From NCBI RefSeq assembly GCF_032062105.1, contig NW_026935196.1, forward strand, positions 124,001 through 188,000: a stretch of DNA of 64,000 nt, read 5' to 3'. The stretch comes from Saccostrea cucullata. Its lineage: Eukaryota. Positions 1 through 63,806 of the stretch are shown here, one piece after another. Position 1 is the first letter of the stretch. Each line of letters opens with the position of its first letter. The notes beneath the pieces are model-generated. The model made no database searches, was not told where the DNA came from, and saw only the letters and a list, made by a program, of their open reading frames with translations. The translations under genes and the position numbers were made by a program.

Positions 1-1130
1 TAATTGTTCTTCAATGTAAATGACAAAACAAAATGATAACTTGTATTTCATACAAGTATATGACATATTGGCAAGCTTCACTATTAACTAAAAGCACTGT
101 TGACATCAGAGTCTGTTCACATCCAGAAAATGTTCATTTTCTAACGTGCACTCACATGTAGTATTTTTTATCATTTCAAAAATTACATTGTTCACATAAC
201 CCATAGCACTGTTGCTTTTTATTGTTTTAAAAAGAAAAAAAGGATGTCAGTGAAAAAACATTCAATCATTAACATATATTGTGTAATGTACTCTTCATCA
301 CCCAAGTATACTTATATGTACATGTATATAGACACACTCAACAAAAATCAAGACAAATACTTCTTTGTAGACAAAAATAAAATATTTGTGTGGTTATTTT
401 GGAATACAAAAAAAATATACAAAATTAAATATACTCAAGAAAAAAGGTTACATAGATGAGTATTTTTGCATTGCTAAGGCATACATAGTTAGATACATAA
501 TCTATGATTACTTTACATAAACATGTACAATGTATATGTTTTCAGTGTGTGAATGATAAACATAAATATTGCTTTAATGAACAAACACAGCTGAGGGATT
601 TGTTCAATACTACTGAATCACTTGCAAAGACATTTGGAAACATAAGTCATCAAATTTGTGCCCTCATTAAATTGATTCAAATTGAATAAAATGTTTGAAC
701 CCAAGCAAACAAATAAGTTACATTCACACATCATGATAAGAAAGCCATAATCCTCTGGTTAATGCTGAACAAAGTGTATAGCGTATAGTGTATAACAAAG
801 TATAGGACTAGGTGTGTAAGTTATTGGTGGCTAAAAAATTACAAACAATGGATTTCAAAATCTACCGGTACTTATTTACAATATTTAGTATTTCACAATA
901 GCTGAAGACTGGCATTATTAGCATAACTAACAATCTTGTATGTGTTCACGCTAATTCTGAATCTAACTTAATACTCTGTCTTCACCATATTACCCGGGTA
1001 ATATACATGAATTTAATAATTTAAACACAGATTTTACCAAATGAGTCAAAGAAGAACCAACTTTAAGTTAATTTCTTACGAGATCTGTCTTTTGTTTTGA
1101 AGATATACAAGTATACATGTAATACTGGTA

Positions 1131-1349
1131 TACCGTAAATCTGGAAATTTTTACGTCGATTTTATTTTGCGAATTCGGGTCAAAATGGTGTTGATTAATT
1201 TTTACGTTTCAAAATTTTGCGAATTACCACTGCTTTGTTTACATTTTCATATTGGAAATTTATTTTTAAGAAAAATATTTTTGTGAAAGCAGTGAACTCG
1301 CAAATTTGCTAAAAATTTATCTATAGCAAAAATTTCCAGATTTACGGTA
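1131..1349. mobile_element. Non-autonomous TA-flanked DNA transposon (Tc1/mariner-type MITE)
   Basis: Terminal inverted repeat TACCGTAAATCTGGAAATTTTT / AAAAATTTCCAGATTTACGGTA; a deleted relative sits at 49549-49640. Confidence 0.85.
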
Positions 1350-1818
1350 TATAATGCATTTTTTAATGGGTCCCCCAGCAACTCAAAACTGGAGTGTGGA
1401 GGGGGGATTCCTAGTCTTAATCTCTCATCATTACTGTATGGAAACTTGCAACTTTAATCCTCAATATATCATGAGCAATTTGCAGAATGCATCATTTATG
1501 TAAAATGTTGAGCAGACATAAAAATTGGGAAATAAAATGATATAAAAAAAGAATTTACTGGAGTTCCACGAGGCATGGATTCAATTTTAAGAAGTGAAAA
1601 TTTGAAATATTTTTCTTGCATAACACAGATTGGTGGTTTAAGTTAAGTAAGGTACATATACCTAGCATATGTAGTAGGATATCTTCTTCAAACACATTAA
1701 TCACACCTACATTCAAAGCTTACACATATTTACATGTATCACAGTTGATGAATTGGACAATTGTTTCTAAGCTAAGTTTTCCATGGTGATCACTGATTAC
1801 CATAGAAACAGTAGTTCC

Positions 1819-4800
1819 CTAATCCTCCTTTGAGCTGATATCCCCATTGGCTATAAAGGAATGCGTGCGACCAGGTGCCCCTTGCTCCCGGATAAAAAAT
1901 TCTTTCATCCTATCGTAAATCTCTGTCCTCACCGCTTTAGTGAATTTGGTGACTAAGCACAATGTAGTCAGACCAGCAAAGACAATATTACACAACATGA
2001 TGATGTAAAAGTTTCCCAACCAGTCCATACTTCCAAAGTTACCAATCAAGTCAAAATTGGTTAAACCTGAAAACACAGAATTTTAAAATCATTTATATTC
2101 TATTGTATGTTTTGTTGTTGACATCTGACAGACAGTAATGCAAAATTTAAATTTAACACTGCACAACTATTTGATTGGATTTTACACTCCATAACTTTAC
2201 CTGATAAATTCACAATTTTTGTAAAACATGAAATTGAAGACTTGTAAATCTGACCTAATGTCCTTGACATAACAGGTAATGCTGAACTAAGGATGAGCAG
2301 GACAGTGCAGTTTCCAATGACCTTGACCATCGACGTTTCATGTGGAACTGGGCGAAGATTGCGAAATACTGGTAGACTGTACAATCCTAATACAGATGCT
2401 AACATAACATATCTAAATGGAGTTAAGGAACTGTCAATAGAGCTATGAATATAAAAACCCGTTTTGTTATCATAACTTTTTAACAGTAAATCACATTTAA
2501 TACCAATGCACAGTATTATGAATAATGAAGGATACAAAATAAAAACAATTTCTAAAGCTGCTCCAAAAGATCCTAAAGCAGAAAGAGAAGCCATTCCTAG
2601 GACTGTTTCCTGAAAGGAAAACAAAATATATACATGTATAAAGTACAAAATATTATCAATTTATCCAGAACACTTTGTGCCAAGATTGGCTGAAACTGAT
2701 CCAGTGGTTTTGGAGAAAAAGTTGAAAATGTTAAAAGTTTACAATCAGCAACAACAAACGATGGACAAATTTTTAACTTAAAAGGTCACTTGTGCTTTAC
2801 AGCAAAAAAAGGAAGGACTCAAATGTAAATGGACGCCAAAGTTTAATTTCCACAATATTTTATTATAATGAAGCATTAAACTTAAATGAATTGAACAGTA
2901 GATATTGCTTTTTATAAGCCCTTTTTATGTAACATCATTTACCTTGGCTCCCACCGGTAAAGCTTTGATACCAACGAGTAACAACAGAAAGTTATGGACA
3001 ACCATCAACACACACAATACCTGGAAAACAATGTAACTCTGTATCATAGAGATCAAATCATGCTCCAGTCTGGGATAAAATAGGTAATCTGCTGGTACAC
3101 GCATGTCTCAAAACTTGTAAATAAACATACATGTATATAAGCTTTTACTCAACATGTTTAAGATAAAGTCATTTTGTGTACTTACTGTCAAAGCCAACAA
3201 AAATAACATAACAAGGGGATAACACAAATTCCTCCACAATATGGACGTCTTATTTCTCTTCTCTGAAAGAAAATGATATTACATGTTGACAGTATTTCAA
3301 AAGAGTACTCCAATATCTGATGTTATAAATATATTTATTGCTATTATTTTGCAATTTGTACAACGCATTGAAATTTCATTCAAAAAGTAAAGCCCTATTA
3401 AGCTTGTACATTAGTTTACCTAGTTCTTTCAGTGTTTCTTGGTTGCTCTCTAACTGTTCTATCAGTTCTTCTGTAGACAAATGTCCATTAGCCAGTCTAT
3501 CAGGTACAGCTTTGTCTGTGACAAAAAAATTCAGATCTCAATTCTTAGGGCAAAAAAATCACTTCTTGCTGTGTTTTCACAAATCCAGTAATACATTACA
3601 GTATATGTACATGAATTGTGACTATATCTGAACAACTTATTCTCCATTATTGATGTACATCTGGAAAAAAAGCTGAATTAGAAGCAAACAAGTAAATCTT
3701 CACTAAAACACTTACACTACATGTAACCATATAAACTTAAATGTCTTACATTTATTACTTTTGGTAAAGGTCAGTCTCCGTCTCAAATCAGTCTCTGTTA
3801 AACGAACAAGGACAAGCTCCTTCTCCACGTCTTGAAAGAACTGGAATCAAAAATGCTCTTATATCACTATCAAGCACAAATGTCTATTTTCTTTTTATAT
3901 ACCTGAATATTGAAGTTCTTCACAACATTATTTCTGGGACTTTCCTGACCTTTGGTTTGACAATGAGTTCCCCCATCACTGTGAACATTCTAGCAAATCC
4001 AACTGGGGCACACACTGAAAAAAATGGAGAGTAAAAAGTATAAGAACAAAACAAGAGGTTTGGATTGGAAAAACTTTGTTGTAAAGCCCTAAAAAATGAA
4101 ATCGAATATATTTATAGATTAACTATTGCCTCACTACTTACACAAAAGGATTACACCTCCAAGGAAGGAAACACAGGAGTACAGGTATGGAAGATAATAG
4201 GACCAGATATCTGTAACAAAGGTAGATATCAATTTAATAACAGGACCAGATATCTGTAACAAGGGTAGATATCAATTTAATAGGAGGACCAGATATCTGT
4301 AACAAGGGTAGACATCAATTAAATAACAGGACCAGATATCTGTAACAAAAGTAGATATCAATTTAAAGCAGGACCAGATATCTGTAACAAAGGTAGATAT
4401 CAATTAAATAACAGGACCAGATATCTGTAACAAAAGTAGATATCAATTAAATAACAGGGCCAGATATCTGTAACAAAGGTAGATAACAATTTAATAATAG
4501 GACCAAATATTTGTAAGTGTAACAAGGGTAGATATCAATATAGTTACAAGTCAATGAAAGTAACATGGTTTGACCTAATTATAGCAAATCTCCTCCTTGT
4601 ACATTAGAACAATTCTCTGTCATCCTTGTTGGACTTTTAGTAAGGCATGGCATTCTCGACGCTACGTAATTAGCGTCTCTCAAATGGCGACATGGATTCT
4701 CATTGGTTAAGAAATTAATAACATCAACAACTTTAAATTGTTGTTGACAACGATGAGACAACTTGAGCCCCACCTCTTTGCTGTACGAAATGCTATCATT

Positions 4801-7800
4801 GGATCCTTGCTACACTCGTTGACATTCACCCAAATTTCTATCCCATGTATATTTCAAAAGTAAATGAAATGCTGTGTAAATTTCAGACACTAATTATGTA
4901 ACGTCGAGAATGCCATGGGTTACTGAAAGTTCAAGGAAAACAGAGAATTGTACATAATATAAGGAAGTTAAATATGACAAGGCATGTTAGTTTAACAAAT
5001 ATATCTATGTCTATAAGTCAACCATCAAACTACATGTATTTATAAACTTAAAATATAATTTACAGCATACTACTGTGTTACTAGAAACAACTGGTGTTTT
5101 CTTTTTGTCTCATTGTCATAAAAATTTCCTTCATGTTGTATAATGACAAGAGAAAGACAGATTGTATTAAAATGTGGCTCCATTTAGATGCATTGGACAC
5201 AATAAACAAACAACTTCCGCATCCATCATGCAGGCAACACAAAATCAGTGGTAACCTAAACTACTTATGTCATCGTTTCAATCTTAGGTTAATGCATTCT
5301 TACCAAAGAGAGTTTCTTGACTGTGTTTGTTGCCGTCAAATATTGCAGAGGCTACCCAGGCCAGCCCGATAACGAGGATACTGACTAATATCAGCACAAT
5401 AAAGGCCTCGTACACACGCGACCAGATACCCTGTCATCAGAAAAAAATATATATAGTTACAAGTATACAAAACTTTAACAATATCATCATCTGAAATAAC
5501 ATTAGCTTCAAAAATACCCTATGATCAAAAAGTAAATAAATCTGCAATTGTAACATTTTATGTGTCAAAAATCATATTTCTTAAACCGTTATTGTTCAAT
5601 ATATTCTGTTACAATCTTTATAGAATGCACCATTACCTTTCTGACCCCTACAAATCCTTCAGACTCGGTGAAGAAGTAGGCAAATGGCATAAAAAAGAAG
5701 AGCGACAGGTTGGAGATCAGAAATATGTTGTTCCAGAAACCTAAAATACATAATACACATATATATTAAAGTCACTAAGTGTATTTGTATGGAAATACAT
5801 ATGATTTCAGCTGACTTGGTAAAGATACATCAACTTAACTGAGATCATTCAAGATTAACATTATGGTACATGCATATCAATATAATTTTATGCTGGTTTA
5901 TGACAATATTTTCAGATTACCAATGATGAGGGAGGAGTTGAGCCACTGTACGTAGTAACTGTTGGGGTAAGACAGGAGGACTTCATTGGACACGATAGAC
6001 ACCGGGAGGAGGAGAGTCGCCCCCACAGACACCGAGAGGGTGAAAGTACACATCCACAGTCTGTAACGAAAAACAGGAATGAAATATAGATTGGACAAAA
6101 AATAAAATCACTGATTGTAAAGGAAGGTGGAGAGCCCCCCACCCACCCTCGACACTGAGAGGGTGAAGTACACATCCACAATCTGTCAATAAAGAAGAAT
6201 AAAATATAGATCTGACAAAAACAGATCACATATACTAGAGGGAGGAGTGTTAAAATGGCCCCACAAAGACCAAGAGGATTCACGAAAGTACACATGCATC
6301 CACTGAGTCTGTAACAAACAGAAATCAACTGAAAATAGATCTGATAAAAATAAATTGCTGATTGTTCATAATCAGCGGGCTATATTAAGTTCTGATCTAG
6401 AATACTTGTATTATTGTTGTATTGATAAATAGTGCCCAGTATTTATGTACATTCTTTTTATGTATTGATGACATACAGAATAGGTTTTGACATCTGCTAT
6501 TGTTTACTTCCAGTATGCCATTGATCCTTGTCAAGTGAGCTTAAGAGGTGCAAAGCTTTGTACATAAAACATATGTTGTACAATTTTTTATGAAATAAAA
6601 ATTACTCACGCAATTCTGTATACCACTGCATCCTCCTCCCCTGAAAACAGAGATCATAATTAAGTTTATTAACACTGTACACATGTTTTTAACATAAAAT
6701 ATCATTTAATAATTAATAAGCTTCCAGATAATAATCTCAATACAGTTATGTAGTTTGATGCTGGTAGAAGGATAGAGAGTATAATGTCATTGTGATCCAA
6801 AGTGAATTTCTCTTGTGCTGCCAATTTAAACGTGTTTAAAATTACAAATTTTATAGATAAAACCAAATGTGGAAAAGATTTGGCCAGACCTTCAGAAAAC
6901 CATAAATACAAATCGAAGAGAAATAAACAAAAGGAGCTTGGTGTGTGTGCTTATTTTAAAAAGATATATGAAAAGATTTTTCAAGTCCTAAAGATTTTTC
7001 CAAAATTTGTGAGTAAATCAAAGTGATGCAGAAATCAACAAAAAGTGCAGAGATCTTAGCCATAACATTAAAACAATTTATGAACCTACAAACTGTGACC
7101 TGCCTTTGAGAAGTGCAATATTACACATGACACAGATAAACATACACAAGAGGAATCTGTGATTACATTTACCATTTCCTGGACCTCTGACAAACTTCCT
7201 TCTATTGGTGACTACAGAAATGTTAGCATCTCATCAGTGTTCATATTTTATCTTTACATCATATTTCCCCCATTAGATTTAATTCAAGTCGAGGAAATTG
7301 GGCAAATTGTGCTCACCAAATTAAGATTTCATATTATATAAAACTATCTGCTACTTATAATTAACAATGTAAAAATGTTGGGGCTTATGGTAAATTACAT
7401 CCACATTATTGCCAGAACTGATATACCACACACTTCGGATACACTACATACTGAGGATAATGTGGTATGCCTGCCCTGTAATTAATGGGTAAACAGTTAG
7501 TAATGACTAGAGTAATTAACACACCTGCTGATGAGATATCTTCGGAGTCGGCTGTTTTGAAATGTCTCACTGTCACATAGGAACTCACATACAGGAAAAT
7601 AAACAACAGCAGACATATCTGAAAATTACAAAAGAGGTATATGGCATATTTGACCATCAATGCTGAGCTTTTATGGCCCAACAGATCAGGAAAAAAATAT
7701 ATATATTATGTTTTACCCCCAGGGACATAAACTACAACAGGTACCAGGCCCAAGGACCATGAAACAGACTTAGACTTAAGTCAAGTTTTCAAACACCTGT

Positions 7801-10800
7801 AAAATGTTTATTAATTATTGAATTGATCTGAAAATTTGTAATATACAATATATTATAAATCAAAATTGAAACACATTTCAATTTTGATCTGTTTGCCTTC
7901 TACAAAATTTAAATACAGCATGAAGATTTTGATTTAAGCTTAAGATGTTTCATGATCCCAGGGCCAGGTCATTATGACTAATTCATGTGTCAAATTTCAT
8001 TCAGATTTTCAGCCCCACCCCATCCCTCCTGATTTATACCCCTTCACTCTTTCAATTAAAAATTACTTGAACATCCAATATGCCTTATCACTAACAAATT
8101 CACTACATATTGTAGCAATGCTGCATTCTCTAAAAACAAAATTGATAATTTTATAGCTGTGAAATCAAATCTCATAATCAAAAAGAAAACAAAGATGTTA
8201 GTCCCCTCCCACCTTCAAATCAGAATCAATTGTGTTATCAGCTGGACTTTGTTGTGAAATGCTAAAGGGAAATTCCAGTTTACCTTTTTTCATTTGTAAA
8301 ATTTAACTCTGTGTTACAATGTAGTGAAATGGTCCCAAAATATAACACAGGATACACAGTTATCTTACAGGTGATAATCATAGTATAATTAAATTCCACA
8401 TTATCCTACAAGAGAGGTATTTTAATTCATGAACATCGACTTATCACTGTACAATTTAAATATACACATCACAAGGTTTGATATCTAATGTAGGGCAAAA
8501 CCCAAATGAGCACTTGACCAATTTGTTTGCATCTGTCAGACTGCATGTCACACAAAGAAATCCCACACTGGGGTTGACCTGTTGTAAACATTGTCAACAT
8601 GTTTTTGTCCCAGTACACTGAACTCTTCCACTCCAATCAAGACAGTTATTCATGTTGGGGAAAGTTTAAAGTACAAGACACTAGTGCATAAGATGGGTTC
8701 TTCAGGTTTAAAACATTAAGCAAACTAAGCTGTTTTCCACCAGACATTGTAGCTGAGAGTTTTTTATAACATCAGTACAAAAAAATATATTAAACAGATC
8801 ATACAAGGTTTTAGTTTCAGTACAATAAACATTTAATTCCATTAAGGGGGCCGACTATAGTTTTATTGTGTGAAAACTACAATAGCGAAACTCTTCAAGT
8901 GTATACCATATATAACTTACATTAACTTCAGTGTACATGCATACCGTCCAGGTATTTCTGAGGGACTGTCTCAAAATACGGGTACATTTACTATAGGATT
9001 ATATAGGAAAATGCCAATTTTTAGCTCTTTAAAGCAAATTATACAAATACTACAATAGACATTTTGTTCAAACTATAATATTTGATGAGTAATAATATAT
9101 TATACAATATATGTAAGAAACACAAAATTCTACCGTCTTGTTACCAGAGGGGGCATCTCAAAATGCAAAAAAATTAGCAAATTTTACTATTTTTATAGAG
9201 TATTACAAAATATGACGTACACAATGGATTCACATGAAAACATAATAAAAATATTGGAAATATTCTCAAATTTCTATGTTTTAAATTTCAAGAGCGTATG
9301 TTTATTACTTTTTCTTTAATGATATTTTTATTACCCCTTTCTTTAAGAGCTACAGATTATCATAACGTCAAAAACACACTGCAACGACGTCAACCTACCT
9401 ATCAATTGCAAAATCGGTTAAAAAATCAGTTATGTCAAATTGTAATTACATTTTTATACCTATAATTTCTTAATTTTGTTTAATTTTAATAATTAAGCGA
9501 AAAAAGTTGCATTAAAACAGCAAATACGCTTCATTTTACTATGATGCGCGAAATATTGCGCAATGGAAACTATAGTCGGCCCCCTTAAATTTTCAATTTC
9601 CTTGAATTCAACATCTAGTATAAAATTACAAGTTTCATTAATCTTAAATTTACTTTTCCTAAGGCCATTATAAATTATGAAAATCTAAACCCAATATTTC
9701 TAATTTACTTAAATGTATGACATTCTCAAGCTTTGTTAGAAGTGTAGATACCTATACCTATTATCATACATGTACTAACATGGCCTCCTTTTAAAACATA
9801 TTTTACTAAATTAAATTTAAATTTCATTTTCCAGGATACAGCCTAAACAAACAAAGCCTAGTGTACGTATCATAGTTAAACTTCTGTGACCTACAACCTT
9901 CTGTATACAACTATAAAATGATGCATTACATAATTAATACACATGTATGTACTTTTAACATGCAATATTTACATTCCGTGTATTTTTCCTTATGAAATTC
10001 ATTAGAAATCCACGACATTCAAATTTCTATAACACACGCGAAACCTTGTCACCTCGCGTTAGAATACACAGTAGGAACTACATTGTATATGCATTTTTTC
10101 TATAATCTGGGAACACCAAAATGTACAATATTTTGACTCAATTTAATTAAAAACTATAATCCTGTTAAATTAACGTAAAAATACTATAAATGTGCGTTTA
10201 AAATTAATTTGTCACTTTTTTTCCTCACAATGTTTGTTTGCGTTATTTAACTTTGCAAACGTCATCTGATGTCACAAACGGCTCTTACGTCTATTAACCG
10301 TGTCAGTTTTGAAAGGCGTTAAATTCACATTCAAGGTTAACGAAATAAGCAATTATGAAGAAGGAAAATTAGAGAATGTAAATATAAGCATTGAATTCAT
10401 ATTTTTGTCTGTCTTCGGTCCTATAACACACCTGGCCGTGCCGACAAATTTATCATACCGCACTAACGCGCGGTATTCAATTTGTCGGCACGGCCAGGTG
10501 TGTTATAGGACCGAAACCTTTAATGCAGTGGACACTCAAGGGGACTTATTATTGTTAGCATACAAGTGTAACAGGAATAGGAGAAAATGTATGGCTGACC
10601 AGGAATCAAACTCGGGACCCCTCCTTCACTAGTCAGGTTCTCTACCGACTGAGCTACCCAAGCTTATATCCATGGCCCAAACCTTTAAACATGGTTGAAA
10701 ATGACATGTATTAAAATAATTTGGGACACACACATCGTCAGCTTAAATTCAAGGAACCAGAATTTTCACTTAAAATCTACAGCATTTATTATTCCTACAT

Positions 10801-12064: not shown

Positions 12065-13684
12065 CATCAGAGCACCATAGAAGAGAAAAATATGTGAAAT
12101 CTGCCTCTTGGAGGAAAACTTCATTCTGGAAACTCCCTTTATTATGTTTATTCGAAAATTTGAATTATTCATTAATTTTAAAGAAGTAAATGAAGGCACC
12201 AGTTGAGAGAGACACGTTATTTTTTTATGAAGTATATTTGGGTTAAATACCACGATAAAGAATTAAAACTTGATAGAAAAGAGAAAAAAAGTCACAAATG
12301 CCTTGTGATTCACCCGAGATCAAATTAATATGGATCTTTTTGCACTTGGCAAAAAATTGCATGACTGAAATATTGATTAATAAATACTGAGAATGATATA
12401 TAATGCTTTGCAATAAGAATAAAATAGCCTTGTTCTCTCAAATATGTGACTTGAATTTTTTCCACTTCAAGATAAGAAAATGAAGCAAAATTAAATATAC
12501 TGTTAAAAGTCAGTGAAAGAGCAATGCCATATGACCTTTTTAAGAAATAGAAATACCCCCACCCCCATCACAAGAACCATGACCTGCACAACGTGTTTAA
12601 TTCAGTTAAAATATAGATCCATATAATTTACTGTTCTTCCTGAAACCTTTTCCTAGTCAGTTCTTTTCCCCCCTTTCTTTGGGGGGGGGGGGGATTTGAA
12701 AAAATCAAGCTCAATCATTTGAAATTCAGTTCTTTGTATAGCTACTTGTTGTCTGCATGATACTGAAAATTCAACTTAACTTTTTATTGAGTTTTATTTC
12801 AGAAAAGAGTTTTAAAAATTGATTGATGAATCTAAATTATTTAATTAAGAAGTTATATTCATTTGAATTTTTTTTTTTACTTATAAGTCTGTTCTCAATT
12901 TGTGGTCTTGTAGCCTGATCAAATTAATGTGCCACTTTGAAGACCTTATCGAAGAATTTTGTACATGTATATGAATTACATGCATGTCCACTTTTCTATT
13001 GCATGTGCAAATTCTTTCCCCATTTAGTCCACAGTCCAGTTGAGACAGATGTTATATGAATACCTTATACATTTTTTTCTTGCAAATTAATGTCTCTTGC
13101 CCTACAGAAGAGAACACCCCCTCCCCACCCCGCTACAGGTTAAGCTTTGTCAGTGGATCCAGCAGTTTGGCGTTGCTTTTTTTCTCCTCTCCGTAATCTA
13201 GAGATCTCGAATATAATGTCACGCGTACGATGTCAATATAATCCGATCGTAAAATAGCGTATGATAGTTTATCTTATTGTAGGAAAAACATATATTCTTT
13301 TCAAAAAGGTCTACTGGCCTGGGTTCTGCATACCGGTATGCAACCATGAATTACGATGAAAATACCAGTATGAAGAGGGGATTGTATGATCATACACGTA
13401 CATTTGTTTCCTTAGGGGAGGAGTCCCTGTAAAACCAATCATCTGCTACATGTAGGTATTTTAGGGGAGTAGGGCACTGCATAGCCAATGTTCTTTTAGG
13501 TCCCCTTGGTGCCTGTGCAGATAATAGGTCAATGCCCAGAAAATCTGTTTTAGATAAAAAAGTAAAACTTTGTATAGACCCATATTATCTGTGTGTATGT
13601 GTGTTCTTATGGGAAAAGTTTCAGCTTTGTGAGGGAGAATAATTCATTAAAAATAATTTTTAAAATCGGTCTAAAAAATTAAAT

Positions 13685-14055: not shown

Positions 14056-14519
14056 AAGTAGTCAAAACAGAATTAAAAAAATAAATTTTAATATTCAAAT
14101 TCTTTATTTACTATATTTAACATGAAAATGTTTAACACAAACAAATAATAAAACCATTCTGGCTTTGGAACATTACACCACATTTACTACAACATTTCTC
14201 CCGTAACTCCCACATCTAACTCCGTCATCACAATAATAAAGATCTGTAGGTCATTGAGGAATCCACTGAACAACATCCATAAAGCATTGTACAAATCCAC
14301 CCTTTAGTATAAAATACAAATTATTCATAAATCTACAGCTTAGTTGAGAAATTCTTCCTCTTTGTTTTTTAAAAAATGGTGATATTACTTGACAGGTTTA
14401 AAATTGCACTTGCCATTTTTATAATATAAATTACACTACAGAATATTGCAAATTTAAATGCTAGTTATGGACTTAATAAAAAGATGATTGAGCTGTAATA
14501 CATGTACAACCGATGAAGA

Positions 14520-14599: not shown

Positions 14600-16063
14600 A
14601 TGAAGATATAATTGTACAAACAATTCATAGAATTCAGTTCTAAATTTAAAATCACAATCTTAAATAAAGTTGTAAATGCAAATGTTCATAAACCCTTTAT
14701 CAACATGTGGATATCATTAGACTATAAAGAAAAAAATCACAACCAAAAGTTCTGTTTGTGTATCTGCTTTTCTATTAATTATTTACTTAATAAATCAATT
14801 CCTACACATAGATTTATCAAATACCACTTTATATAAATATATATCTTGAAATAAAATGGCAGCTTTCTTTCTGTTTACCCCCCCCCCCCCCCCACTTTGT
14901 CTTACAGAAAAAATAAAACTGCTGCAAAATAAAAGCTGTATACAGTTGTCAAGGATATAAATGTATTTTGTAGGAATATCAGAAACATAATAAAATAATA
15001 ATAAAATAAATATACAACCTACAAAATAAATATACAACCTATACATTAGAGATTCATTAAAGAGATCAATAACTACACGTTATAAGAGTCTAATATTATG
15101 GCTAATCCGATATAAACTTTTAGGGGAACTTATTTGTAACAAGCATCCTGTAAACAATATCACAAAGCTATTACCGGTAAACACAACAATAAAATAAATA
15201 TACTGGATTTCTTCTCCAGAATAAAGGGACTATGTCATATACCATTGAAATGATGAAAGATAAGGATTATCATAGGGACTTTATCTTCAAATAATTAATA
15301 GCTTGTCCAAAGTTGACCTTAAAAATAAATTTGTGAATTTCATCTTCCAAAAAAAAAATTATTAATAATATAGCACTTTATAAATCAAAATAAAGAAAAT
15401 TAAAAAAACCCAAACAAAACAAACATTAAAATTCATTTGTATACAGGAAACTGTAATCTGAAGTACATGTATATATGTAAATCCAAATTTAAATTTAATA
15501 TATATCAAGCTAAATCTGGCAAGAAAAGAAAAATGTTCAGACACAAGGAAGCACAAATAAAATTGATGGAAAACTCTGGAAGTTTTTAAAATAATATATT
15601 TTCCTTGTATATTCCCAAAATAATCTACAATCATTTAAGCCACCTAAAGATCCCCCCAAAAAATCAACATCATTCTCCTTATATCACTGTTAAAATAAAA
15701 TATCATTTGTAATACATGTAATAAATAACAAGGTCAATATAATGGTATTTAACAGTGATCCTAACTATTATGTCTCAAATTCCAATAAAGCATAAAAAGA
15801 GGTGCACCAAAAGCTCCACCCCAATTAATGGGAAAGATGAAAACCTGCTAATGACTCTTACAGAGTCTGATTAAAACAAAGGAAAATGCCAAACTTCATA
15901 TACTTTAGAGGTTCAAGTCATGTGAAAATGTTTTAGAAACCAGATTTAGACTCAGAGACTGCATTCTAAGTTTCTATTGGTAGAAACATATACATCTATC
16001 TGGTGTTTTGAGGAGAATGAAGATGGAATGTTTATAATTTTGTGTGATGAACACTGTAATCAT

Positions 16064-47782: not shown

Positions 47783-48579
<797 letters not shown>

Positions 48580-50282: not shown

Positions 50283-51219
50283 TTAAAATCACACGTATTA
50301 TTATTATACGCGTATCTGAAAATTTGATTAATTTTAGATAACATTGATGTACTTAGTATATAAGGGCAGTAGATTTATTAACCGGTGGTATGGACAGTGA
50401 ATAATGGCTTAACAAGTAATATTAGATTGTCAGCCAGTATTTGACTTAATGATAGATTGTATATGCTGACAAGTTCATTGTATCGGGTGTAGCACTTGCA
50501 AAATGATGACTTTAAGCGAAACTGTTTATATTCTGGTTTTATCCACTTGTTTGTTAATAGCTTGCCTCGTTCTAGAAATCGTTCCTACGTAGAGCTAGCT
50601 CCTTTTTATCAAGTCAACTGAGAGACATAAAAAACAGGTTATAAGGGTATATTTTCTATATAATTTTCTACAATTTAGAATTTCCAATTCAGAAGTTGGA
50701 ATTATATACTTTAAAGTTGAAAATACCAACTTTAAAGTTGCAAAAGGCAAAGTTGAAGCGGAATTCCGAACTTAACAGAATAATCAACTTCGAAGTTGAA
50801 AATGTCGAAATAAAAAGTTAAAATTTTTCATTTAAGAAAAAGTGGCAATGATAGGCTTCCGTATATTTATTAACCAAATTTATATTATAAATTAGAAAAA
50901 AAGAATTAGGTTGAGGTATGGCGATTATATTTTAAGTAAGGAGATCGGATGAAAGGAAGTACTGTATATAGCTGGCATATTTCCCATCAGTACATCGACC
51001 TTTACAGCTAGGTGACAAACTATAACGATTTATAAATAGATCACCAACCACCGCTATGGAAATGTAAGACCTCTGTTGACACGTGGGGCAAAGTCTGGGA
51101 CTTACGCAATCTTGAGGTGTTGTCTTTTATAAAGAATAAAAAATACATGAGTAATCCTCATCCGCTCTGGGTAACATGCATATATCCGCTTTTGAAATAT
51201 AAAACAAATATCGCAGAGG

Positions 51220-54200: not shown

Positions 54201-57200
54201 TCAAAGTATTCCAGAAGCCCGAACCAGCCACAGTGTTTATTTTTTTAATGCTTTGTCCATCAATTTGGATTGGGTATGATTTTATATTTGACTTAAGATT
54301 TAACACTCCTTTTTACAAGACCTGCTGAATGCATGTCCTAGTATCAAAAATCATTTGGAACGTAGGTTTTGGATATTATTTTACTAGAAAGAGCTAGACG
54401 TTTACGGTAATATAAAAACGAAGAATTATGGTAAACATATTGACTTTTCAGTCGTCTGCTTCGCTTACCTATGCAGCAATGAACCCTTATCACGTGCGGT
54501 GTTTATATCTCTCAGTTGATTAGATAATCAAGAGCATGATCTACGTATAAAGAAGATACAAAACTATTGACAAACAGCAGCTCAACACAACTTCTTCCAG
54601 TTTGTCTTATTTTGGATGTCCTGAAACAAAAGAGTTGCCTTCTCTTTGCCCCTGAAAAAGTTTATGAAATAAGAATAACAACAAGTCTCGTTCGAAGTCG
54701 TCACTTCGCAAATTCTATGGTTGATTTAGTGACCTTGTCGGCAAATACAACCTATCGTGGATTTAAATGCCGACTTACGCTGCTCACTCCTCCATGGCAC
54801 CTGATCCAATCTCAAATGTTTTTAGTAGTCCTTCTTTGCTCTGTTCCCGATTTGCTTTGTTTAAATCGACTTTGAGCTTGAATATCGTGCATTATCCTCA
54901 AATTTCATGAATGAAACATATGGAGATATAACGAACAGTATTATATTCAAGATCAAAAACCATAAAACAATACAAAATAGGAGCAGAGCAAACACGGACC
55001 ACCAAACCATCAGAGGTGGGATCAGGTGCCATGGAGGAATGAAATCAATACCTCATTGACTTTTAAAGAACTTGATATGCCCAAGGCAGAGTGAAATAAT
55101 TAACTTGACATATACTAAATTAACTCTCTGTTCCTTGAGCACATAAGACCTGCCCCGAGGATCACTGTCTCTGCCTGTCTGCTTTTCTGTACCTTGGTCT
55201 AAGTCCATCCCTGATTTTTCCACTGATCGCCATCATATCTCCTCTTATATTTACTTTCTTGGTGGAGTCCATAACTTGGTACTGATTTTGTCTGCCAAAT
55301 AGTTTCCAGTGAGACAATTTACTCTGCATCAATGTCTAAACGTTCTTTCTTTCAGCTTCTTTTGATGGACATATCTAGTTAAATAATCTTTTAAAGTATT
55401 TCCTTTTGGCACATCTGTGCTTCAAAATCATCCCCTTGGAGTTTTTGCGATGCATTAAAAGGTTCACTTGTCTTGTTTTCTGAGCACCTTTTCTACATTT
55501 TTTGCTAGCTTGTCAACATAATTTCTCATGTCTCTCTGTGTACTTAACTTTGTGTTCTTGTTGTGAGGTATTTTCCTAAAGCTGGTCTGTGAAATTGACT
55601 GATTTGGCTATTAGTATTTTCTTTCTCTGATTTAGTTCTTAGTTCGACCATACGATTTCCCTTCTTTTTTTCTTTTCAACTCCCTTTTTTCAATTCCCTG
55701 CTCCCATAAGAATGCTGTAGATTTGCTTAATACTGACTTTTTGCTGTCAATCTATCCTGTGATGGATTCTTTTCCTTGATTGGTAGTACAAACATTTGCA
55801 ATCAGATTAACTCATATGAGGAATAAATCATGAGCTGGTGTTTCCTCCACATTTTTCTTCAGTTCTTTTTTTTTTAAAAAAAGATTTTTTTCCTCCTCTT
55901 CCCTTAAGAATGCTGATTTGCTGAATACAGACTTTTTGCTGTCAACAGTGATGGATTCTTTTTTGATTGATGTTTTGCAATCAGATTAACTCATATGAGG
56001 AATAAATCATGAAAGTGTTTCCTCCACATTTTTCTTCAGTTCTTTTTTTTTTAAAAAAAGATTTTTTTCCTCCTCGCAGATTCTGGGTGAATGACCCAAC
56101 AGTCTGAGATGTTTTGAATGGAATTCCCATAAGTACCAGAATGGCTGAATGTTAACAACAGGCCTATTGTTGTATCTTTATTAAGGAAAATTTATTAAAA
56201 ATCTTTCACATGAAAAAAGTTCTTTGTTGTTACCTTCAATTCAACATTGAGATATATGGACCACCTTTTATCAATTAAAGAATATTCATTTTCATTCCTA
56301 CCTTGATTCGAAATGTCCCTTTGAACTCGGAATAAAAGATTTTCCAGAGTTCAACACATTTGTTTCGTATTTGGATATTTTACTAGAAAAAGATTTTAAG
56401 ACTGTATTGGTAACCAAGCAACTAGACTATGATAAACGTGATTATATACTTTACCTTTTCTATCTTCAAATTCCATGTCCTCATCGTTTAATCGATGGGT
56501 TTGAAAAATCTTAATACATGTACATATTAATTTTTCTAAGAAATAAATATGCGTGTATATACGTCATCCACCATTCTAAAGAAATAAAATCACGAATTTC
56601 GAAATCACATTCAGTTAAAACAGGAAAAAAGTACCCCTGTCTTAAAACTTTGATATAATTGATCATTATTGAAATTTGAAATTCAAACTTCAATCTATGA
56701 CGTTATTGCGTTTGTCAACGCCTCCGCTATTTTAAAATGGTGCGAGCAATATCAAGTAAATAGGCAATCAATCACGATTGGAAAAAAGCACCAGGTAACC
56801 TTTTTATTAGTTTTTGAAAGTTTACATTGAATAACAAGTAGTTTCCCTCTGAGAGAAAGGTCGGAGGACCTCACTCACTTACACATACACACAGAAACAT
56901 ACGTTTGAATTTAAAACCTTAAAAAACTATGGATACCAGTTACAATATTGGATATTCCGGAATTAAATTACCTTACCAACATATTTTTTTTTATCAAAGC
57001 TTTATGTTAAAAATAATCTCCTTGCGTTCCTCTGGCAAATAAATGACGGATATACTAGTATATATAACTATATGTAGTCTTTTTCCAAGAAAGCAATATG
57101 ACACGCCCACCTCTTTGCTTTTCTGCTAACAAGAAGAGCTGTACTCTGTCGACGAAAAAGTGATGCTGATTATATTCTGAATGAAGAATATGTAGATAAC

Positions 57201-60200
57201 GAACAGTATTCAAGCTCAAAGGTCCATAAAACGATACAAACAGAACCACAGCAAACACGGCAAAACATCAGAGGTGGGATCAGATGCCAAGGAGGAGTGA
57301 GCATCCCATACCGACCGGTCACATCCGCCATATGCTCCTTGTCATGATCGGGAAATAGCGAAAAATCTGTTGACAATTCAGTGTGTAAATTAATTAAGAA
57401 TGGTTTTTAGCAAACAGGCGATTGCAAATCACGATATTAGACATAAATGAAATTTTAAAATGAAAACAAAATAACAAACAATTTTTTTCCTGATTACATT
57501 AAAATATATGTACTTCTAAATCAGCACATTTTTGTCGATTATATGATATTGGGAGGTCTACGGAAGTTTTCAATGAAGTAAATATTTACACATATCGTGA
57601 CTTTTTTTGCTTTTAATGCTTCCAAATATATCCCAAACACGTAAAGAAATAAGATGAAATAGTTGTTAAAAGAATAAGCACCTTGGCACTTTCATTCACA
57701 AACCGACACGGTTCACGGATCTGGGCTGCTTAATTGCTTGTTTTTCTCCCGTGAAGTTTTATGAATGAAAACTAGTAACCTAAATATACGAGTAATGTAT
57801 TACTACTAGCGTAAAATAATATTAGCCGGAACGACATGATAATTTGTTTAGATAAAAATAGTTTAGTAGATTATCGACAATGCATAAATAGGATTGACAT
57901 CCCTCTTTTTAAGTATTTGCAAATTTTAACCGATACAAATCACTTATTACACTTCTTTCAGACCTCTCTTCCAAAAATGATGGAGTTCGTAGAATTCCTG
58001 GTGGACATGGAAGGTATTAAGGATTTTAAAACAGCTTCAACTATGACAGATATTATCATGGAAGAAATTGTAGACAATGCTTTAGCAGTGAGTGATTCGT
58101 CCAACTCAGCAAGTAGTCCGTCCACAGGCGAAAGGTTACACTGCCCTGATACGCCGTGTGGACAAGACTCGAACTATTCTGCGAAAAACAGTTCCATCAA
58201 AGCTGTTGTTTCCAAAGCCAAAGACCCTGGTCCTAAATCAACATTCCTCCCTCCCTGTCGTGTGTGCGGGGATAACGCGTCTGGATTTCACTATGGAGCT
58301 AATACATGTGAAGCTTGCAAGGTAAAGGTGGTGTTGAAAAGAAAAGTCTAGCAGGAATTTAATTGGTCTTGCCCATGTTAACGGATATTAGTATCATTAT
58401 GGTCTTTGCAATATATATTTTTCTTGATTTTTTTCATTTCCAGCCGAAATTAAAAATGAAATTTGGGTATTGATCGACCGATATTTTTTCAGCATACACG
58501 TCTTAACCTATAAGTTTCTTGTAGGGTTTCTTCAGAAGAAGTATTGTTAAGGTTCAGCAGAATAAAGAGTCGTATAAATGCGCGGGAAAGGGAAGCGGTT
58601 GTAATCTGGGGCCAGGAAAAAGAAATCCATGCGCGGCCTGTAGATACGCAAGATGTCTGGAAGTGGGAATGTCTATTAACGGTAAGTGTTTAAGTGCAAA
58701 TTACTAAAAACTGTTTATCACAAGACAATGTTAATTTAAAATCATGACGGTAATGTTAATTTGTTCTCACTCTCTTTACTGTCAGTTTCTTAATTATTAA
58801 TAGACAATTTTCTATTAATAGACACAATCTAATGAAATGGAAAGAAACAAAATATACAAGTTCATTTGAAAAAAAATGTTATAAATCATTATTTATTTAT
58901 AAATGATAATTCAATTATTTTTGTTGATTTGATTTATTATTGTTGTGTTACTTTTTCCTAGTTCTACTTGTAGGAGAAAAGAAATAAATTGTCTATGTGA
59001 TCTCTGTTTCTTTCAGCAATAAAAACCGGTAGATACACGTACGAGAAGAGAACTAAGGACACTGTGGAGGTGAGGAATATGAAGGCGGTGGAGAGCCCCT
59101 CCCACCTAGAGACCTACATCAGTGACTCGGAGGTGGACCAGATCATCCAGGCCCTGAAAGACGTCCTCCTAAAGAACTGTCCACAGGCCTACAAAATCTT
59201 TGACAGGGAAACCAACCTACACAGGCAGTGGCAGATCTATGTAAGTCTGCTGGCTTTAATTAATAAACAAAAAGATTTTTACCTCGTTTTATATATGTTT
59301 TTCATCTCTTGTCCTCGGTTTCAATGGTCAAATTCAACAGACCCTCTTTAAAAGACTTTTTAAACTGGTCCAAAGTGTTCGAAAAATGATATTTTGGTAC
59401 AATTAGCAGGGCAATATAAACCTTGCATTTTCTTTATAAGCTTTATGTATTTTGCCATCATGTCCAATCATGTTTTTTCTGTTCAAAACTATAAAAAAAA
59501 CTTAGATAAGTGTGAACCAAGAGAGAATAAAAAACATTTCGTCTTCTTTTAACCAGAATTTTTATTGAAAACATTTTTTACCTTTAATTAAGAATGACTA
59601 CAAGGCCAAAGTGGAAATTTTTGGTTCAATGTCCGTGATTCCAAAAGATGTGTGGGACGAATTTTACAAAGAAACTGGGATAGACTTAGACAACAGACAA
59701 GAGCTGATGAAGGAAATGGCTTGTAGAATGGAGTATGGGCTCACAATGATGGTCGACTTTGTTCGCGCTATTCCGGGATTCGCCGATCTATCCGTGTCTG
59801 ATCAGACAGAACTTATAAAAGGTAATAATAATAATTGGAAAATTAAATTGCTTTGAGAAAGTTATCAGTATTTTAGTTTAACCCTTTTAATTAATTTATT
59901 TCATTTCCATTTTAAAAAGATAGAAATTAAAAACACATTACTTAATTGCTTTTGAAATTGATCTTTCTTACTTAAAAATGAAAAAAAATCCATATTGTAG
60001 GTCAATATGCCCAAATTCTGTGTTATTACTCAACAAAGTTAAAGTTTTTGTTCTCGGAGCTTGGGTGTAGATAATACAATTTTATTTATTAATATACCTT
60101 TGTTAATTTACTAGTATTTGTGCAAAACCTAAATGACTTAAAATAAATTACGTATTTTACCTCTATAGATGAAATATTTGGCATTTTTTAATCACCTTTA

Positions 60201-62175
60201 TGAACAACTAGGTCAGATTCATATAAGTCCCCTGAAAAAGAAAAAAAAAATGCAAAAGAATAAATAACAACTGAAATATTTAACAATATCCAACTATGAA
60301 ATATATAATTGTATGTTTATATCATTTCCTCTGATTTTTCATTTGTGGGTGACTTTTTCTTAGAGAGTGTTCGGAGATAACGAACAGTAATCAAGCTAAA
60401 AGCTCCATTGATACAAACTGGGAGCAGAGGAAAGACGGACCTCTAAACTATCAGGTGGGATCAGCTGCCATGGAGGATGTAACAACTTCGCTAAGACATT
60501 ATGAATCTAAGAATTTGTGAAACTAAACGTAAACAAAGAAGAAAACAATAAATTTTAGAAACTTTGACAATTTGAGTTTCTGTCATTCTGGTTTGTAACT
60601 CTCGCTATCTTATAACAGGCTATGGACTTCGTATAGGGAAAGGAATTCTCGAATTTTGCAGCATTTTTAGTATTTGTTCATAGTGTTAAAGGATATCACT
60701 TTTATTCTGAAAATGTAGTGAACATTTTCATTTAATAATTTAATTTGTAATAATTGCTTTGCAGCATCTCATTTCGAATTTTTCTACTTGATGAATCATA
60801 AAACAATTAATCCTGAATTACGGGTGATATCGGGGATGTTAGGTATGCATCAGAGTGACATGGAAAAAATTGCCGAAAAAGAAATGGTGGACACCCTATT
60901 TCAATTCAGTGCAAGCTTTACTAACCTTGACCTGTGTTTTGATGAGGTGTTACTTCTACGGGGGATAAGTGTTACCTTTGCAGGTAAATTTAGTCAGAAT
61001 GGTCTTCTTTCAGCACTAGTATTTCTTTTCTTTGTAGCATCTCATTTTGAATTTATGTTCATTGGTCATTGTCACTGCTTTAACCCCCACCTGAAAGTTG
61101 TTACGGGGTTAATCGATGCACAGCTACAAGATGTTTATAAGCTATTTGGGATTGATGAATCAGTCACTAGTCAATTCAATCAGATGGCTGCCACCTTACA
61201 AAAGATTAAACTAGATTGGGAGGAAAGTTTTTTGATGCGTAGCATCGCTGTTACTTCCTCAGGTAAGGAGAGTATATACCATGAGAAATAATGTATGCTA
61301 TTGCGGGGGCTATGTCTGCTTTGTGTTCCTTATGTTTTCCATGTTTATCATCCTACCTACTTTTCCTGCACATAGCTACATTGTTCATCGTGCCTTATTG
61401 TATGTCATTCATAATATAGGTTCAGAAATGGCTAGATATGTTTTGGAAGAATATAAACACGTCATTACATGTGTATGTCAATATCTTCTCGCATGTACTC
61501 AGGTAAATTGGAGTTGGAAATACTCAGAATATTAAATGCCTTTCATTTTATGTATCATGCTCCATGTTTGGTGTTGGTTTTTCACTATTGAAATTAGAGA
61601 CCTCAAGTGCGTTGAGTAATCATTCATTTTTAGTTGAATAGTGTTTTCTTCGACCTTGAGCCAAACCTTGATATAATCAAGTAATATATAAAATATACTT
61701 TGATAAGATTAAATAGAAACTAGACATTTTCAGAATTAGTGCTGTTGTAGATAATTAGAAAGACTATGATATAATTTTTTCTGTTTATCTAAAAAAAAAC
61801 CACCAGTAATTTAGTTGTTGTGTTTAAAAATTAATACGCCCTTGACTGTTAGATTACTATTATATTGTTGTTGTTTTTTTTTAATAATTTTTAGTAACTA
61901 GAGGGAGTTCATTTAAATTTTTTTGTTTGCCCACAGATCGTTGTCAGTTGGAGGAACCAAAAGCCGTAGAACGAATTCAGTGGAAGCTGATCAATGCTTT
62001 TAGAGTGCTAGCAAAACGTAAGAACTTCAAGCCAGAGCAAAGGTTGTGGCACATAATGGACCGCCTTACTGCTCTCAGGACTATGACAGAAATAAGCAAG
62101 GAACTGGACAAACAAAAGTGTTCATGGCCAGTCATGAAAGACCACCCTCTGGTTTTGGATATTCTGCAGAGCTGA
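51220..62175 (+). CDS. Nuclear receptor, NR1-like (C4 zinc-finger DBD plus LBD), with duplicated LBD exon
   Basis: Exons 51220-51744 (acidic N-terminus; linkage inferred from phase), 57962-58321 (CRVCGDNASGFHYGANTCEACK), 58525-58681 (GFFRRS..CAACRYARCLEVGMS), 59017-59240 (AIKTGRYTYEKRT), 59593-59821 (FVRAIPGFADLSVSDQTELIK), 60765-60983 or 61038-61262, 61937-62175 (DRCQLEEP..LTALR..HPLVLDIL). Confidence 0.9.
55110..55330 (-). mobile_element. Possible decayed RTE-clade LINE 3' end
   Basis: Frameshifted remnants resembling CL..IW.DKIS, WTPP.K, WRSVEK.GWT and ADR...LCA..E*. Confidence 0.35.
55708..56075. repeat. Tandem duplication, 2 x about 170-190 bp
   Basis: aagaatgctg...gcaatcagattaactcatatgaggaataaatcatga...ttaaaaaaagatttttttcctcctc at 55708-55897 and 55906-56075. 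Confidence 0.9.
60765..60983 (+). CDS. Nuclear receptor LBD alternative exon A (219 nt, phase 1-1)
   Basis: ttgcag|CATCTCATTTCGAA...TTTGCAG|gtaaat; encodes ASHFEFFYLMNHKTINPELRVISGMLGMHQSDMEKIAEKEMVDTLFQFSASFTNLDLCFDEVLLLRGISVTFA. Confidence 0.85.
61038..61262 (+). CDS. Nuclear receptor LBD alternative exon B (225 nt, phase 1-1)
   Basis: ttgtag|CATCTCATTTTGAA...TCCTCAG|gtaagg; encodes ASHFEFMFIGHCHCFNPHLKVVTGLIDAQLQDVYKLFGIDESVTSQFNQMAATLQKIKLDWEESFLMRSIAVTSS. Confidence 0.85.
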
Positions 62176-63806
62176 TAAATATTCTCACTTATTTAAACCA
62201 ATTCTAATGTGATAATATCCTTAAAGCACCTCCTGTTTTAGCCAAAAATGAAGGGCTCTTTAATCCTCTAGGATTCATTGATATAATTTTTGTGGCACCG
62301 ATTTTTGAAATACTATTGCAACTTTGACAAAATTGAACCGATGCCTAGAGCACAGAGCAAGTAGTTGTAAACTGCTTCAACTTGATGATGATGAATGAGA
62401 ACACAGACTCCCAGTGTATGAGTGTTCGTGTTTTTATATAAAGGAAGGAAATGCATCTTTCTTCTAATGTGATCTCAAACACATGACAAACCAGTGAATC
62501 AGTGATAGTTATTTTTGCAGCAAGTTTTATGTCGATGTTATTGTCTCTGTTCATCTATACTTTGATATATAGATTCTCCATGGAACAGTGTTATATGCAA
62601 ACAACATGTGTTTGTTTTGAAAACACTTGTCTAATAATCATTGAGTTTATTCGAAGAATTATATTTTTGGAATCTGAGCTGTTTTTTTCTCACATTTTTG
62701 ATCATAGATAAATATAAGCAGGGCAAATTGAAACAAAACATGTTGATGTGATGTAGTCAGAAAAAACCCCACACATAATCAAAGCTGATACCGTCATATT
62801 GACGGCTTATTGATTGATAAAAGACAAAATCTAAGAATAAGAGAGAATAACTCTGTTTAAGAAACATTCCAAAGCTTCTGACGGAAAAATTAAAAGTTCA
62901 ATGGTAGATTAATAAGCTTGTGGAGTTCATGTTCCAAAAGCCCTCTGTTTCTTCGTTATGATTCAGAAATTATGTGCAGTTTTTTTTCTCCTTATGAACA
63001 ACTGTTCAATCATTTTTCTGAGTTATTTTCAAAAGAAATACCGTCAATCACATTTTTGAGGGGTCAAATTTTCGTGGTTTGAGGAAAATATATTGGTTCA
63101 TTGAAACCAAGAAAATTAACCCCTATAAAATTTATCGATTTCAGGGTAAAGGATATTTAAGCCCAATCGTAAGTGCCAAGTCTTGTTGTTTAATATATTC
63201 TGAAAATTCCATCACCAAGACCTTTACTTCTCGTGAACCTGAAGATTTTAATTTCATCATACTTTGCCATAAAATGGTTGTAATTATTATTCATAATTTT
63301 CATCTGTAAAGTTTAAAATCAATTATATACAATATTTCCATAAAAATTACATTTTTCCATTTTGACAGTACAGAAGCATTATTTTCTTTTTGATGGAAAC
63401 TTTTCTTCTGATTGTGAAGAATGGAACAGTATTTGGATTCCTGTACATTCCTGTTGAGGACTTGTATAGGTTATGCCTGCTGCTTTATCCATTTATGTAG
63501 TTATAACATATTAATATATTTTCAAATCAAATCCTGTACATTCCTAGCAATTTAATTTTATGTTTAAATATTCTATATAAACATTTTTTTCCTTCCCCTT
63601 TGGAAACTTAAATAAATTGATTAATTTGGCAAATATACATGTATGTTTTAATTTTTTTGTTTTTCTTTTGTAATTAATCTTTAAACCTATGAAGTCTCCA
63701 AGTATCTCCAAGTATCTCTACCCCATCCGTCTTTCATTAAAAAAGAGTAAGACTTGTAAGGGTTTATAAATAATACATTTATTATGATGAGTTTTAAGAT
63801 ACACAT

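Follow-up and report, generated by a model that had tools for sequence, protein, structure and literature searches.

Palindromic TAC-N-N'-GTA octamers in the oyster Saccostrea cucullata as probable excision scars of Tc1/mariner-superfamily elements

Results

The octamers in the window

Our subject is a set of palindromic octamers, TAC-N-N'-GTA, in 64,000 nucleotides of the oyster Saccostrea cucullata (contig NW_026935196.1, positions 124,001 to 188,000; this whole stretch is called the window). A first-pass annotation, made from the letters alone, had read these octamers as footprints of departed Tc1/mariner transposons, each a TA target that gained six bases. Our recount recovered all 22 copies of TACATGTA, the 4 of TACCGGTA and the 5 of TACTAGTA at the positions it gave, together with the 6 listed copies of TACTGGTA/TACCAGTA, although the true total of these is 7, the match at 2367 having been overlooked. 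TACGCGTA occurs once, and the sites of palindromic or decayed form number 39 in total (Table 1). Two TA-flanked MITEs (miniature transposable elements with inverted repeats) are also present as described, with CC ends at 1133-1347 and CT ends at 20787-20976. Of a third, CA-ended element at 35682, the left end (TA followed by CAGTAAAAC) is there, but no TA-flanked matching right end was found up to 39500.

The 22 copies of TACATGTA compare with 1.9, 2.7, 3.3 and 5.5 expected in the window under Markov models of orders 1, 2, 3 and 4 (Poisson p = 2e-13 at order 2 and 1e-7 at order 4), so that neither a dinucleotide model, which could have undone the first-pass reading, nor a higher-order one accounts for the counts. 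When TA-xxxx-TA octamers are ranked by observed over expected, the top four are the four palindromes TAC-N-N'-GTA, and the remaining 12 palindromic TA..TA octamers stand at 0-2.5 times expectation. Three other words, GACCGGTC, CAGGTGCC and GCCATGGA, are also over-represented in the window and are probably repeat-borne.

The clustering of TACATGTA on the left is real: 18 of the 22 copies lie within 1-30 kb (binomial p = 0.001; p = 0.004 with repeat-covered bases removed). It does not make the window a special hotspot, since the density of TACATGTA is ordinary, at 0.34/kb compared to 0.37/kb in 138 sampled 10-kb stretches of the genome. The left 30 kb is CpG-poor (0.43 vs 0.74), and the excess coincides with this region, which surrounds an SLC12-family gene. 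We infer that the octamer-rich left part is older, less turned-over gene-body DNA, though insertion preference may be the reason instead. The 39 sites overlap none of 12 selected coding frames (6.1 kb, with exons left of 17 kb unmapped). All five TACTAGTA (36509-60116) lie in the CpG-normal right part, and TACATGTA and TACCGGTA favour the CpG-poor left.

Enrichment across the genome

Our sample of the 1.17-Gb assembly consists of 138 pieces of 10 kb each, 1.38 Mb together, taken from its long contigs. TACATGTA is over-represented throughout, about ninefold, and in the first 400 kb sampled only poly-C ranks above it among 8-mers when models of order 2 and order 3 are applied. The sample holds 511 TACATGTA, 50 TACCGGTA, 61 TACTAGTA and 3 TACGCGTA, where 53, 7, 16 and 4 are expected; extrapolated to the genome, the excess comes to about 390,000, 37,000 and 38,000 for the first three words.

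Enrichment of TACATGTA is 9-10x in CpG-poor and CpG-normal strata alike, and the counts of TATGCATA and CACATGTG come close to expectation. Between CpG-rich and CpG-poor DNA the density of scars increases by no more than 1.7-fold (rho -0.21, p 0.01; for TACATGTA, 0.58/kb in CpG-poor DNA vs 0.34/kb). TACATGTA is denser outside repeats than inside them (0.44/kb vs 0.17/kb), and its count per 10 kb shows no significant relation to repeat fraction (rho -0.14, p 0.11). TACTAGTA is relatively commoner in CpG-normal DNA (4.8x vs 2.7x).

The sample also bears marks of decay and re-use. One-mismatch neighbours of TACATGTA are in an excess of 477, vs 458 for the word itself. TACTGGTA/TACCAGTA are over-represented solely in CpG-poor DNA (2.34x vs 0.79x), and a related sequence run has a C>T change at window position 13334; both bear out the proposal that these two words arise from TACCGGTA by CpG decay. 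Thirteen double scars were found. The CATG, CCGG and CTAG forms have in common a preference for A at -3 (0.50-0.58 vs 0.36 for any TA).

Six-base gains at TA between repeat copies

In the paralog test, 175 sequences (1.57 Mb) were aligned all against all, and the commonest length state in other repeat copies was recorded for each site. A state shorter by six bases was found at 29 of 64 TAC-N-N'-GTA sites, compared to 6 of 256 control sites (Fisher p = 8e-18; the controls are the 21 octamers that had sites). By word, this was the modal state at 20/48 sites of TACATGTA, 3/6 of TACCGGTA, 5/9 of TACTAGTA and 1/1 of TACGCGTA. Where the case is clean, the shorter copies show a bare TA, and their surroundings contain no template for CATG.

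The same picture comes from a list of 338 insertions drawn up without bias and polarised by the majority state: 14 of its 33 six-base insertions are TA..TA, and 12 of these 14 are TACNNGTA. Neither TACATA nor TACAGTA appears among its 42 four-base or 17 five-base insertions.

Empty, filled and scarred copies of two repeat TAs

Two repeat TAs were followed through the genome with sequence patterns that demand intact flanks, which leave excisions with flanking deletions uncounted. At one homologous TA, copies are found empty (TA), filled (TA-element-TA) and scarred (TA, the first two and last two letters of an element, TA). Comparison of homologous sites, as the annotation had proposed, thus returns TA and TA+6 states between repeat copies and, in addition, TA-flanked elements at the same target.

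Site 1 was chosen post hoc as a TA at which one copy carries TACATGTA and a second copy TACCGGTA. Genome-wide, 735 copies have the bare TA, 11 have a +6 scar (8 CATG, 2 CCGG, 1 CTCG) and 6 are candidate filled copies. In particular, one copy (L204) contains an element of 1,354 bp with CAG..CTG ends, a Tc1-type transposase (PF01498, E 5e-12) and a perfect duplication of the TA, and another (L208) contains a 209-bp CT-ended MITE. L203 and L205 contain the start of another CA-ended sequence whose far end lies beyond the range, and the 2 other candidates were uninformative. Of the 22 short insertions at site 1, 10 have the +6 form TACNNGTA, while TACATA and TACAGTA are both absent. The tree of this site, with 6 empty copies, five from one array, carries little information.

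Site 2, in a retroelement-like repeat, is empty as a bare TA in 6,098 copies and carries a +6 scar in 103. A by-eye tally of the 100 scars listed gives 76 CATG, 16 CTAG, 3 CCGG, 2 CCAG, 2 CACG and 1 CAAG, so that 95 of them match element termini as CA-TG, CT-AG or CC-GG. We read 30 of the 33 candidate filled copies. Seven contain a complete CT- or CC-ended MITE, with host sequence resuming past the second TA, and three more have a probable element start, one of them with the end of a pogo-like family; the remainder are 8 short scars (+5, +7, +10), 6 loci outside the repeat and 6 ambiguous loci. Four of the 30, which were selected for C-H-GT starts, are +5. The 103 scars thus outnumber the resident C-H-GT elements, of which 7 are certain and 3 probable, roughly tenfold. 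On the site 2 tree, 30 scarred copies are interspersed with 10 empty ones on long terminal branches, with only 3 near-identical pairs, and because of this scatter most of the scar events look independent.

Site 2 has 250 short TA..TA insertions in all, and the first 100 of these were tallied by eye. These 100 comprise 30 TACATGTA, 1 double, 9 TACTAGTA, 1 TACCGGTA, 1 TACACGTA, 14 forms of +7 such as TA-CAG-TG-TA and TA-CT-CAG-TA, 15 TATA, 4 TACGTA, 3 TATATA, 1 TACAGTA and 21 others; TACATA and TATGTA are absent from these 100. At both sites the spectrum has a dominant peak at two plus two bases and a shoulder at three plus two.

Some minor forms deserve separate mention. TATA (+2) is the second commonest insertion (15/100 at site 2, 5/22 at site 1) and may be read as clean excision leaving the duplicated target alone, or as slippage. 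TACGTA (+4) would fit either the retention of one base per end or direct annealing of CG overhangs left by CG-ended elements, L132 and L134 being examples. TACACTGTA, a +7 (3+2) form observed at site 2, is 2.6-4.2x enriched in the genome sample and lies at window positions 10916, 25886 and 47233.

Candidate donor elements

Genome profile searches gave at least 150 matches to DDE_3 (PF13358) and at least 150 to DDE_1 (PF03184), many of them in open frames of 300-700 residues. Among 40 loci inspected, TA-flanked ends were clear in nine DDE_1 elements, every one of them CA, and in five DDE_3 elements (2 CA, 3 CT); another 3 end assignments were weak or ambiguous, and the remaining loci had no resolved ends. 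No transposase-bearing CC-ended element was resolved among these 40. The first-pass identification of the elements as Tc1-type holds for the Tc1 members, but this is not the sole class, as pogo-like DDE_1 families are included. The CC-ended MITE at 1133-1347 recurs elsewhere in the genome in at least 39 copies (94-97% identity).

A census of TA-flanked inverted repeats was dominated by satellite arrays and gave no reliable ratio of ends, and individually inspected elements were used in its place. The ends of transposase-bearing elements fit the CA dominance of the scars better than today's short MITEs do, and CA scars likely dominate because most resolved transposase-bearing elements end in CA. 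At one locus (L188) a Tc1 element (DDE_3, E 6e-21) lies inside the second TA of TACATGTA. This case and the 13 double scars indicate that scars have been re-targeted.

Window sites in related sequence runs

Five window sites are covered by related public runs, which contain 0.05-0.16 of the sampled words; the coverage is by single contigs (depth about 4 in X9) at a divergence of about 7-10%. Two of four runs in one of the comparisons (X6 and X1) contributed no contigs. Three of the five, a small sample, are altered in at least one related contig. Because they are shared, mutated or doubled in those contigs, these sites seem to predate the divergence from the relatives and to be decaying. A block of about 480 bases (16233-16709, including the site at 16375) is absent from a close (98-99%) X2 contig. 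No haplotig of 12.7-17 kb was found in the oyster's own assembly among 40 scored candidates.

Other features of the window

The gene at 17327..22317 (-) is, we assume, SLC12A8-like. Two ligand-gated ion channel genes (acetylcholine-receptor-like) stand in tandem without apparent introns at 34409-35646, with an apparent frame change near 34700-34810, and at 39334-40650. A GFA/CENP-V-type exon lies at 48295-48579 (-), a nuclear-receptor gene with a zf-C4 match at 57815-62175 (+), and a tandem array of 7.5 copies of a 43-bp unit at 4194-4516. Decayed reverse-transcriptase-like retroelement pieces, presumably Penelope-like, occupy 37000-37248, 44645-45096, 48899-49991 and 56251-56514; by eye, their family also hosts test site 2.

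Table 1. Octamer sites, candidate donor elements and context gene in the window
Feature	Position	Strand	Remark
TACATGTA	319..326	unstranded	likely +6 scar, CA..TG element
TACCGGTA	863..870	unstranded	likely scar, CC..GG element
TACATGTA	1114..1121	unstranded	word match
TACTGGTA	1123..1130	unstranded	likely CpG-decayed TACCGGTA; adjoins MITE 1133-1347
MITE, 215 bp, TA-flanked, CCGTAAAT ends	1133..1347	unstranded	potential donor of TACCGGTA
TACATGTA	1731..1738	unstranded	word match
TACTGGTA	2367..2374	unstranded	word match; absent from first-pass annotation
TACATGTA	2631..2638	unstranded	word match
TACATGTA	3128..3135	unstranded	word match
TACATGTA	3718..3725	unstranded	word match
TACATGTA	5031..5038	unstranded	word match
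TACATGTA	9767..9774	unstranded	word match
TACATGTA	12962..12969	unstranded	word match
TACCGGTA	13331..13338	unstranded	TACTGGTA in sole covering contig of related run X5 (CpG decay)
TACCAGTA	13363..13370	unstranded	no difference listed in covering X5, X9 contigs
TACATGTA	13447..13454	unstranded	doubled (+TACATG) in X5; intact in one X9 contig; half lost, 14-base gap, in another
TACATGTA	14499..14506	unstranded	word match
TACCGGTA	15172..15179	unstranded	word match
TACATGTA	15464..15471	unstranded	word match
TACATGTA	15713..15720	unstranded	spanned by X2 contig with 3 gap letters in 655 bases, hence no clean 6-base deletion
TACATGTA	16375..16382	unstranded	word match
TACATGTA	16840..16847	unstranded	1-base insertion in X5
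SLC12-family transporter gene, coding exons	17327..22317	-	context for CpG-poor left part
MITE, 190 bp, TA-flanked, CTGTATAC ends	20787..20976	unstranded	potential donor of TACTAGTA
TACCGGTA	22627..22634	unstranded	word match
TACATGTA	22772..22779	unstranded	CACATG just before (22766); possibly decayed double scar
TACTGGTA	25104..25111	unstranded	word match
TACATGTA	25208..25215	unstranded	word match
TACATGTA	28156..28163	unstranded	word match
TACTGGTA	28767..28774	unstranded	word match
TACATGTA	31564..31571	unstranded	word match
TACTGGTA	33732..33739	unstranded	word match
CA-type MITE-like element, left end TA then CAGTAAAAC	35682..36110	+	end coordinate approximate
TACTAGTA	36509..36516	unstranded	likely scar, CT..AG element
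TACTGGTA	40651..40658	unstranded	immediately past stop codon of ligand-gated ion channel open reading frame
TACTAGTA	42604..42611	unstranded	word match
TACATGTA	47105..47112	unstranded	word match
TACTAGTA	47227..47234	unstranded	word match
TACGCGTA	50307..50314	unstranded	word without enrichment in genome sample; possibly chance
TACATGTA	56515..56522	unstranded	word match
TACTAGTA	57053..57060	unstranded	word match
TACTAGTA	60109..60116	unstranded	word match
TACATGTA	63636..63643	unstranded	word match

Discussion

Excision scars as the source of the octamers

Taken together, these observations make it very probable that the excess of TAC-N-N'-GTA words represents six-base gains at TA, mostly inherited excision scars of the Tc1/mariner superfamily, and such scars most likely number in the hundreds of thousands. 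The words are most likely scars because the gain of six bases falls at a TA, and the same TA also holds whole elements of Tc1/mariner type. The heavy past cut-and-paste traffic proposed at first pass is supported by the genome-wide excess, the TA and TA+6 states and the filled sites. Its claim that each octamer is a scar goes too far, as about 3 of the 22 are expected by chance and no single window site was seen as a bare TA elsewhere.

Several observations weigh against this interpretation. An important caveat is that the empty, filled and scarred states lie across paralogous copies, and passage from filled to scarred was not followed at a single locus. Among the TACATGTA repeat sites, 13/48 show no length change (several are mutual pairs sharing the word) and 15/48 show other length differences, and none of 6 TACTGGTA/TACCAGTA repeat sites has the six-base-shorter state. 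No window site lies inside a testable repeat, and the five covered by related runs are shared, mutated or doubled, with no bare-TA, filled or empty allele in two comparisons, one of which lists 12 of its 98 indels. CG-ended TA-flanked elements exist (L132:2626-3696, L134:4081-5134), yet TACGCGTA is not enriched, and present-day short MITEs (8 CT-, 3 CC- and 1 CA-ended) are unlike the scars. The genome sample, moreover, favours long contigs. No large insertions were found at scar-bearing sites in that random sample; the filled sites came from the genome-wide patterns.

Tc1-type transposases cut 2-3 bases inside each end and leave 3' overhangs on the donor. The 2+2 and 3+2 forms in the spectrum lead us to infer staggered cuts of this kind, 2-3 nucleotides inside the ends, followed by end joining. 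An element would enter a TA and duplicate it, as the filled copies display. By analogy with Tc1 and Tc3 biochemistry, transposase would then cut about 2 bases inside each end and leave two 3' overhangs, CA and CA. Because CA overhangs cannot pair, keeping both ends would need synthesis across the break, and the germ line may usually retain and fill both overhangs through end joining of the Pol mu/lambda type, yielding TA-CA-TG-TA. Human Pol mu and lambda are described as synthesising across unpaired breaks in the available text of PMC3799444. Scars would subsequently be re-used as targets, to which the double scars and the element inside a scar point, and would decay as neutral DNA, the CC scars through CpG loss.

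We hold a broader version of this model with somewhat less than even confidence. Most TA-targeting insertions in the lineage might end as one stereotyped scar through overhang fill-in, and not as resident elements, and some 0.4-0.5 million scars would then form a countable excision archive coded by family, seeding words of Irx or MYB type across the genome. In Phytophthora and in other marine invertebrates, too, the TACATGTA motif may have arisen in this way.

Alternative explanations

The alternative that survives best, though we regard it as very unlikely, is that TACATGTA is a selected transcription-factor site, of the Irx-type homeodomain or MYB kind, to which scars contribute at most raw material. 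The word is cited as a preferred Irx site and as the top Phytophthora promoter motif in the parts of PMC3520976 available, and PsMyb37 binds it in Phytophthora according to the accessible portion of PMC11134190. In the oyster, its higher density outside repeats and in CpG-poor DNA and the presence of the window sites in relatives would also suit a functional site. However, the word arises de novo as a six-base block in copies of retroelements and other repeats, alongside CT and CC variants, and the comparable excess of one-mismatch neighbours and the changes at three of the five covered window sites fit neutral decay. Block insertions, the halo of decayed forms and these altered sites thus differ from the positional conservation that the annotation had named as grounds for a factor motif, and from the origin by point substitution expected of a selected site. 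As the origin of the words, a factor site is ruled out by the TA and TA+6 states; later co-option of some scars as factor sites may have occurred.

Scarcely credible, to a still greater degree, is a transposon event other than excision, either an integration of end fragments that was aborted or a deletion inside the element that left two bases of each end. It would accommodate the fact that a filled-to-scar transition at one locus was not observed, as well as the rare longer remnants, among them a +10 insertion at the second site. The sharp 2+2 peak with its 3+2 shoulder fits staggered cuts and not random deletion, and the same product is documented following Tc1 excision in the text available of PMC4490562.

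An equally slight chance attaches to an origin of the word from composition or mutation, whether by slippage, by alternation of purines and pyrimidines or by CpG decay of a word such as TACGCGTA: although CA and TG are over-represented and CG depleted in the window, and its left part is CpG-poor, enrichment is undiminished in both CpG strata with TATGCATA and CACATGTG near expectation, other alternating octamers reach at most about 4x in the window, and the empty paralogues contain no template for CATG, so that untemplated +6 insertions rule it out.

Implications

Excision normally leaves no later trace, which makes departure rate and germ-line repair hard to measure in wild animals. Here each scar can be read as a tag, its four central letters identifying the type of element end, and insertion-to-excision ratio, target preference and age become countable from one assembly, with repeat copies as internal controls. 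There is also a warning: the top motif in such genomes, and with it the inner PciI site ACATGT, can be a transposon scar and not a regulatory signal. The paralog test offers a simple check for the Phytophthora motif.

Comparison with known systems

In print we found no report of a genome with this footprint as its leading word among molluscs or other invertebrates, a search whose coverage excludes most subscription papers and repeat-database notes. The accessible part of PMC4700943, on restriction-site-associated DNA (RAD) sites including ACATGT, has nothing bearing on TACATGTA scars. Phytophthora motif-1/AM-20 is the same very abundant palindrome, TACATGTA, but is interpreted in that organism as bound by a transcription factor; its abundance and conservation led to the footprint idea being put aside, and the text covered contains no indel test (PMC3520976, PMC11134190).

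Excisions of rice DNA transposons were likewise read by comparing filled and emptied sites, and in the portion of PMC4423477 available they are heterogeneous, with 8/94 perfect and most carrying deletions or filler. Rice has no dominant word there, whereas in the oyster one stereotyped scar leads all 8-mers other than homopolymers when models of order 2 and order 3 are applied.

Oyster scars resemble the footprints of Sleeping Beauty, Tc3 and Mos1 in combining a TA duplication with terminal element letters. The canonical forms in those systems are TACAGTA or TACTGTA, and TACATA or TATGTA. These retain the letters of one end, whereas oyster scars mostly retain both, and one-end forms are rare in the oyster.

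The closest likeness is to class L of germline Tc1 excision in Caenorhabditis elegans, TA-CA-TG-TA at a TA target from CA..TG-ended elements. In the available text of van Schendel et al. (2015; PMC4490562), class L makes up 24/103 frame-selected revertants, and 26 Tc1 products are dominated by Pol theta deletions and templated inserts, class L being called rare. Upon loss of Pol theta a class without homology leads with 32/39. For the C. elegans Tc1 footprint, PMC3520976 in the part covered cites Eide and Anderson (1988). In the oyster, by contrast, TACATGTA leads the short TA insertions at site 2 (30 of the first 100), CC and CT versions occur too, and the scar is fixed at roughly 1 per 3 kb. 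The scar type is thus already known from C. elegans Tc1; what the present analysis adds is the trio of empty, filled and scarred copies together with the spectrum at one site.

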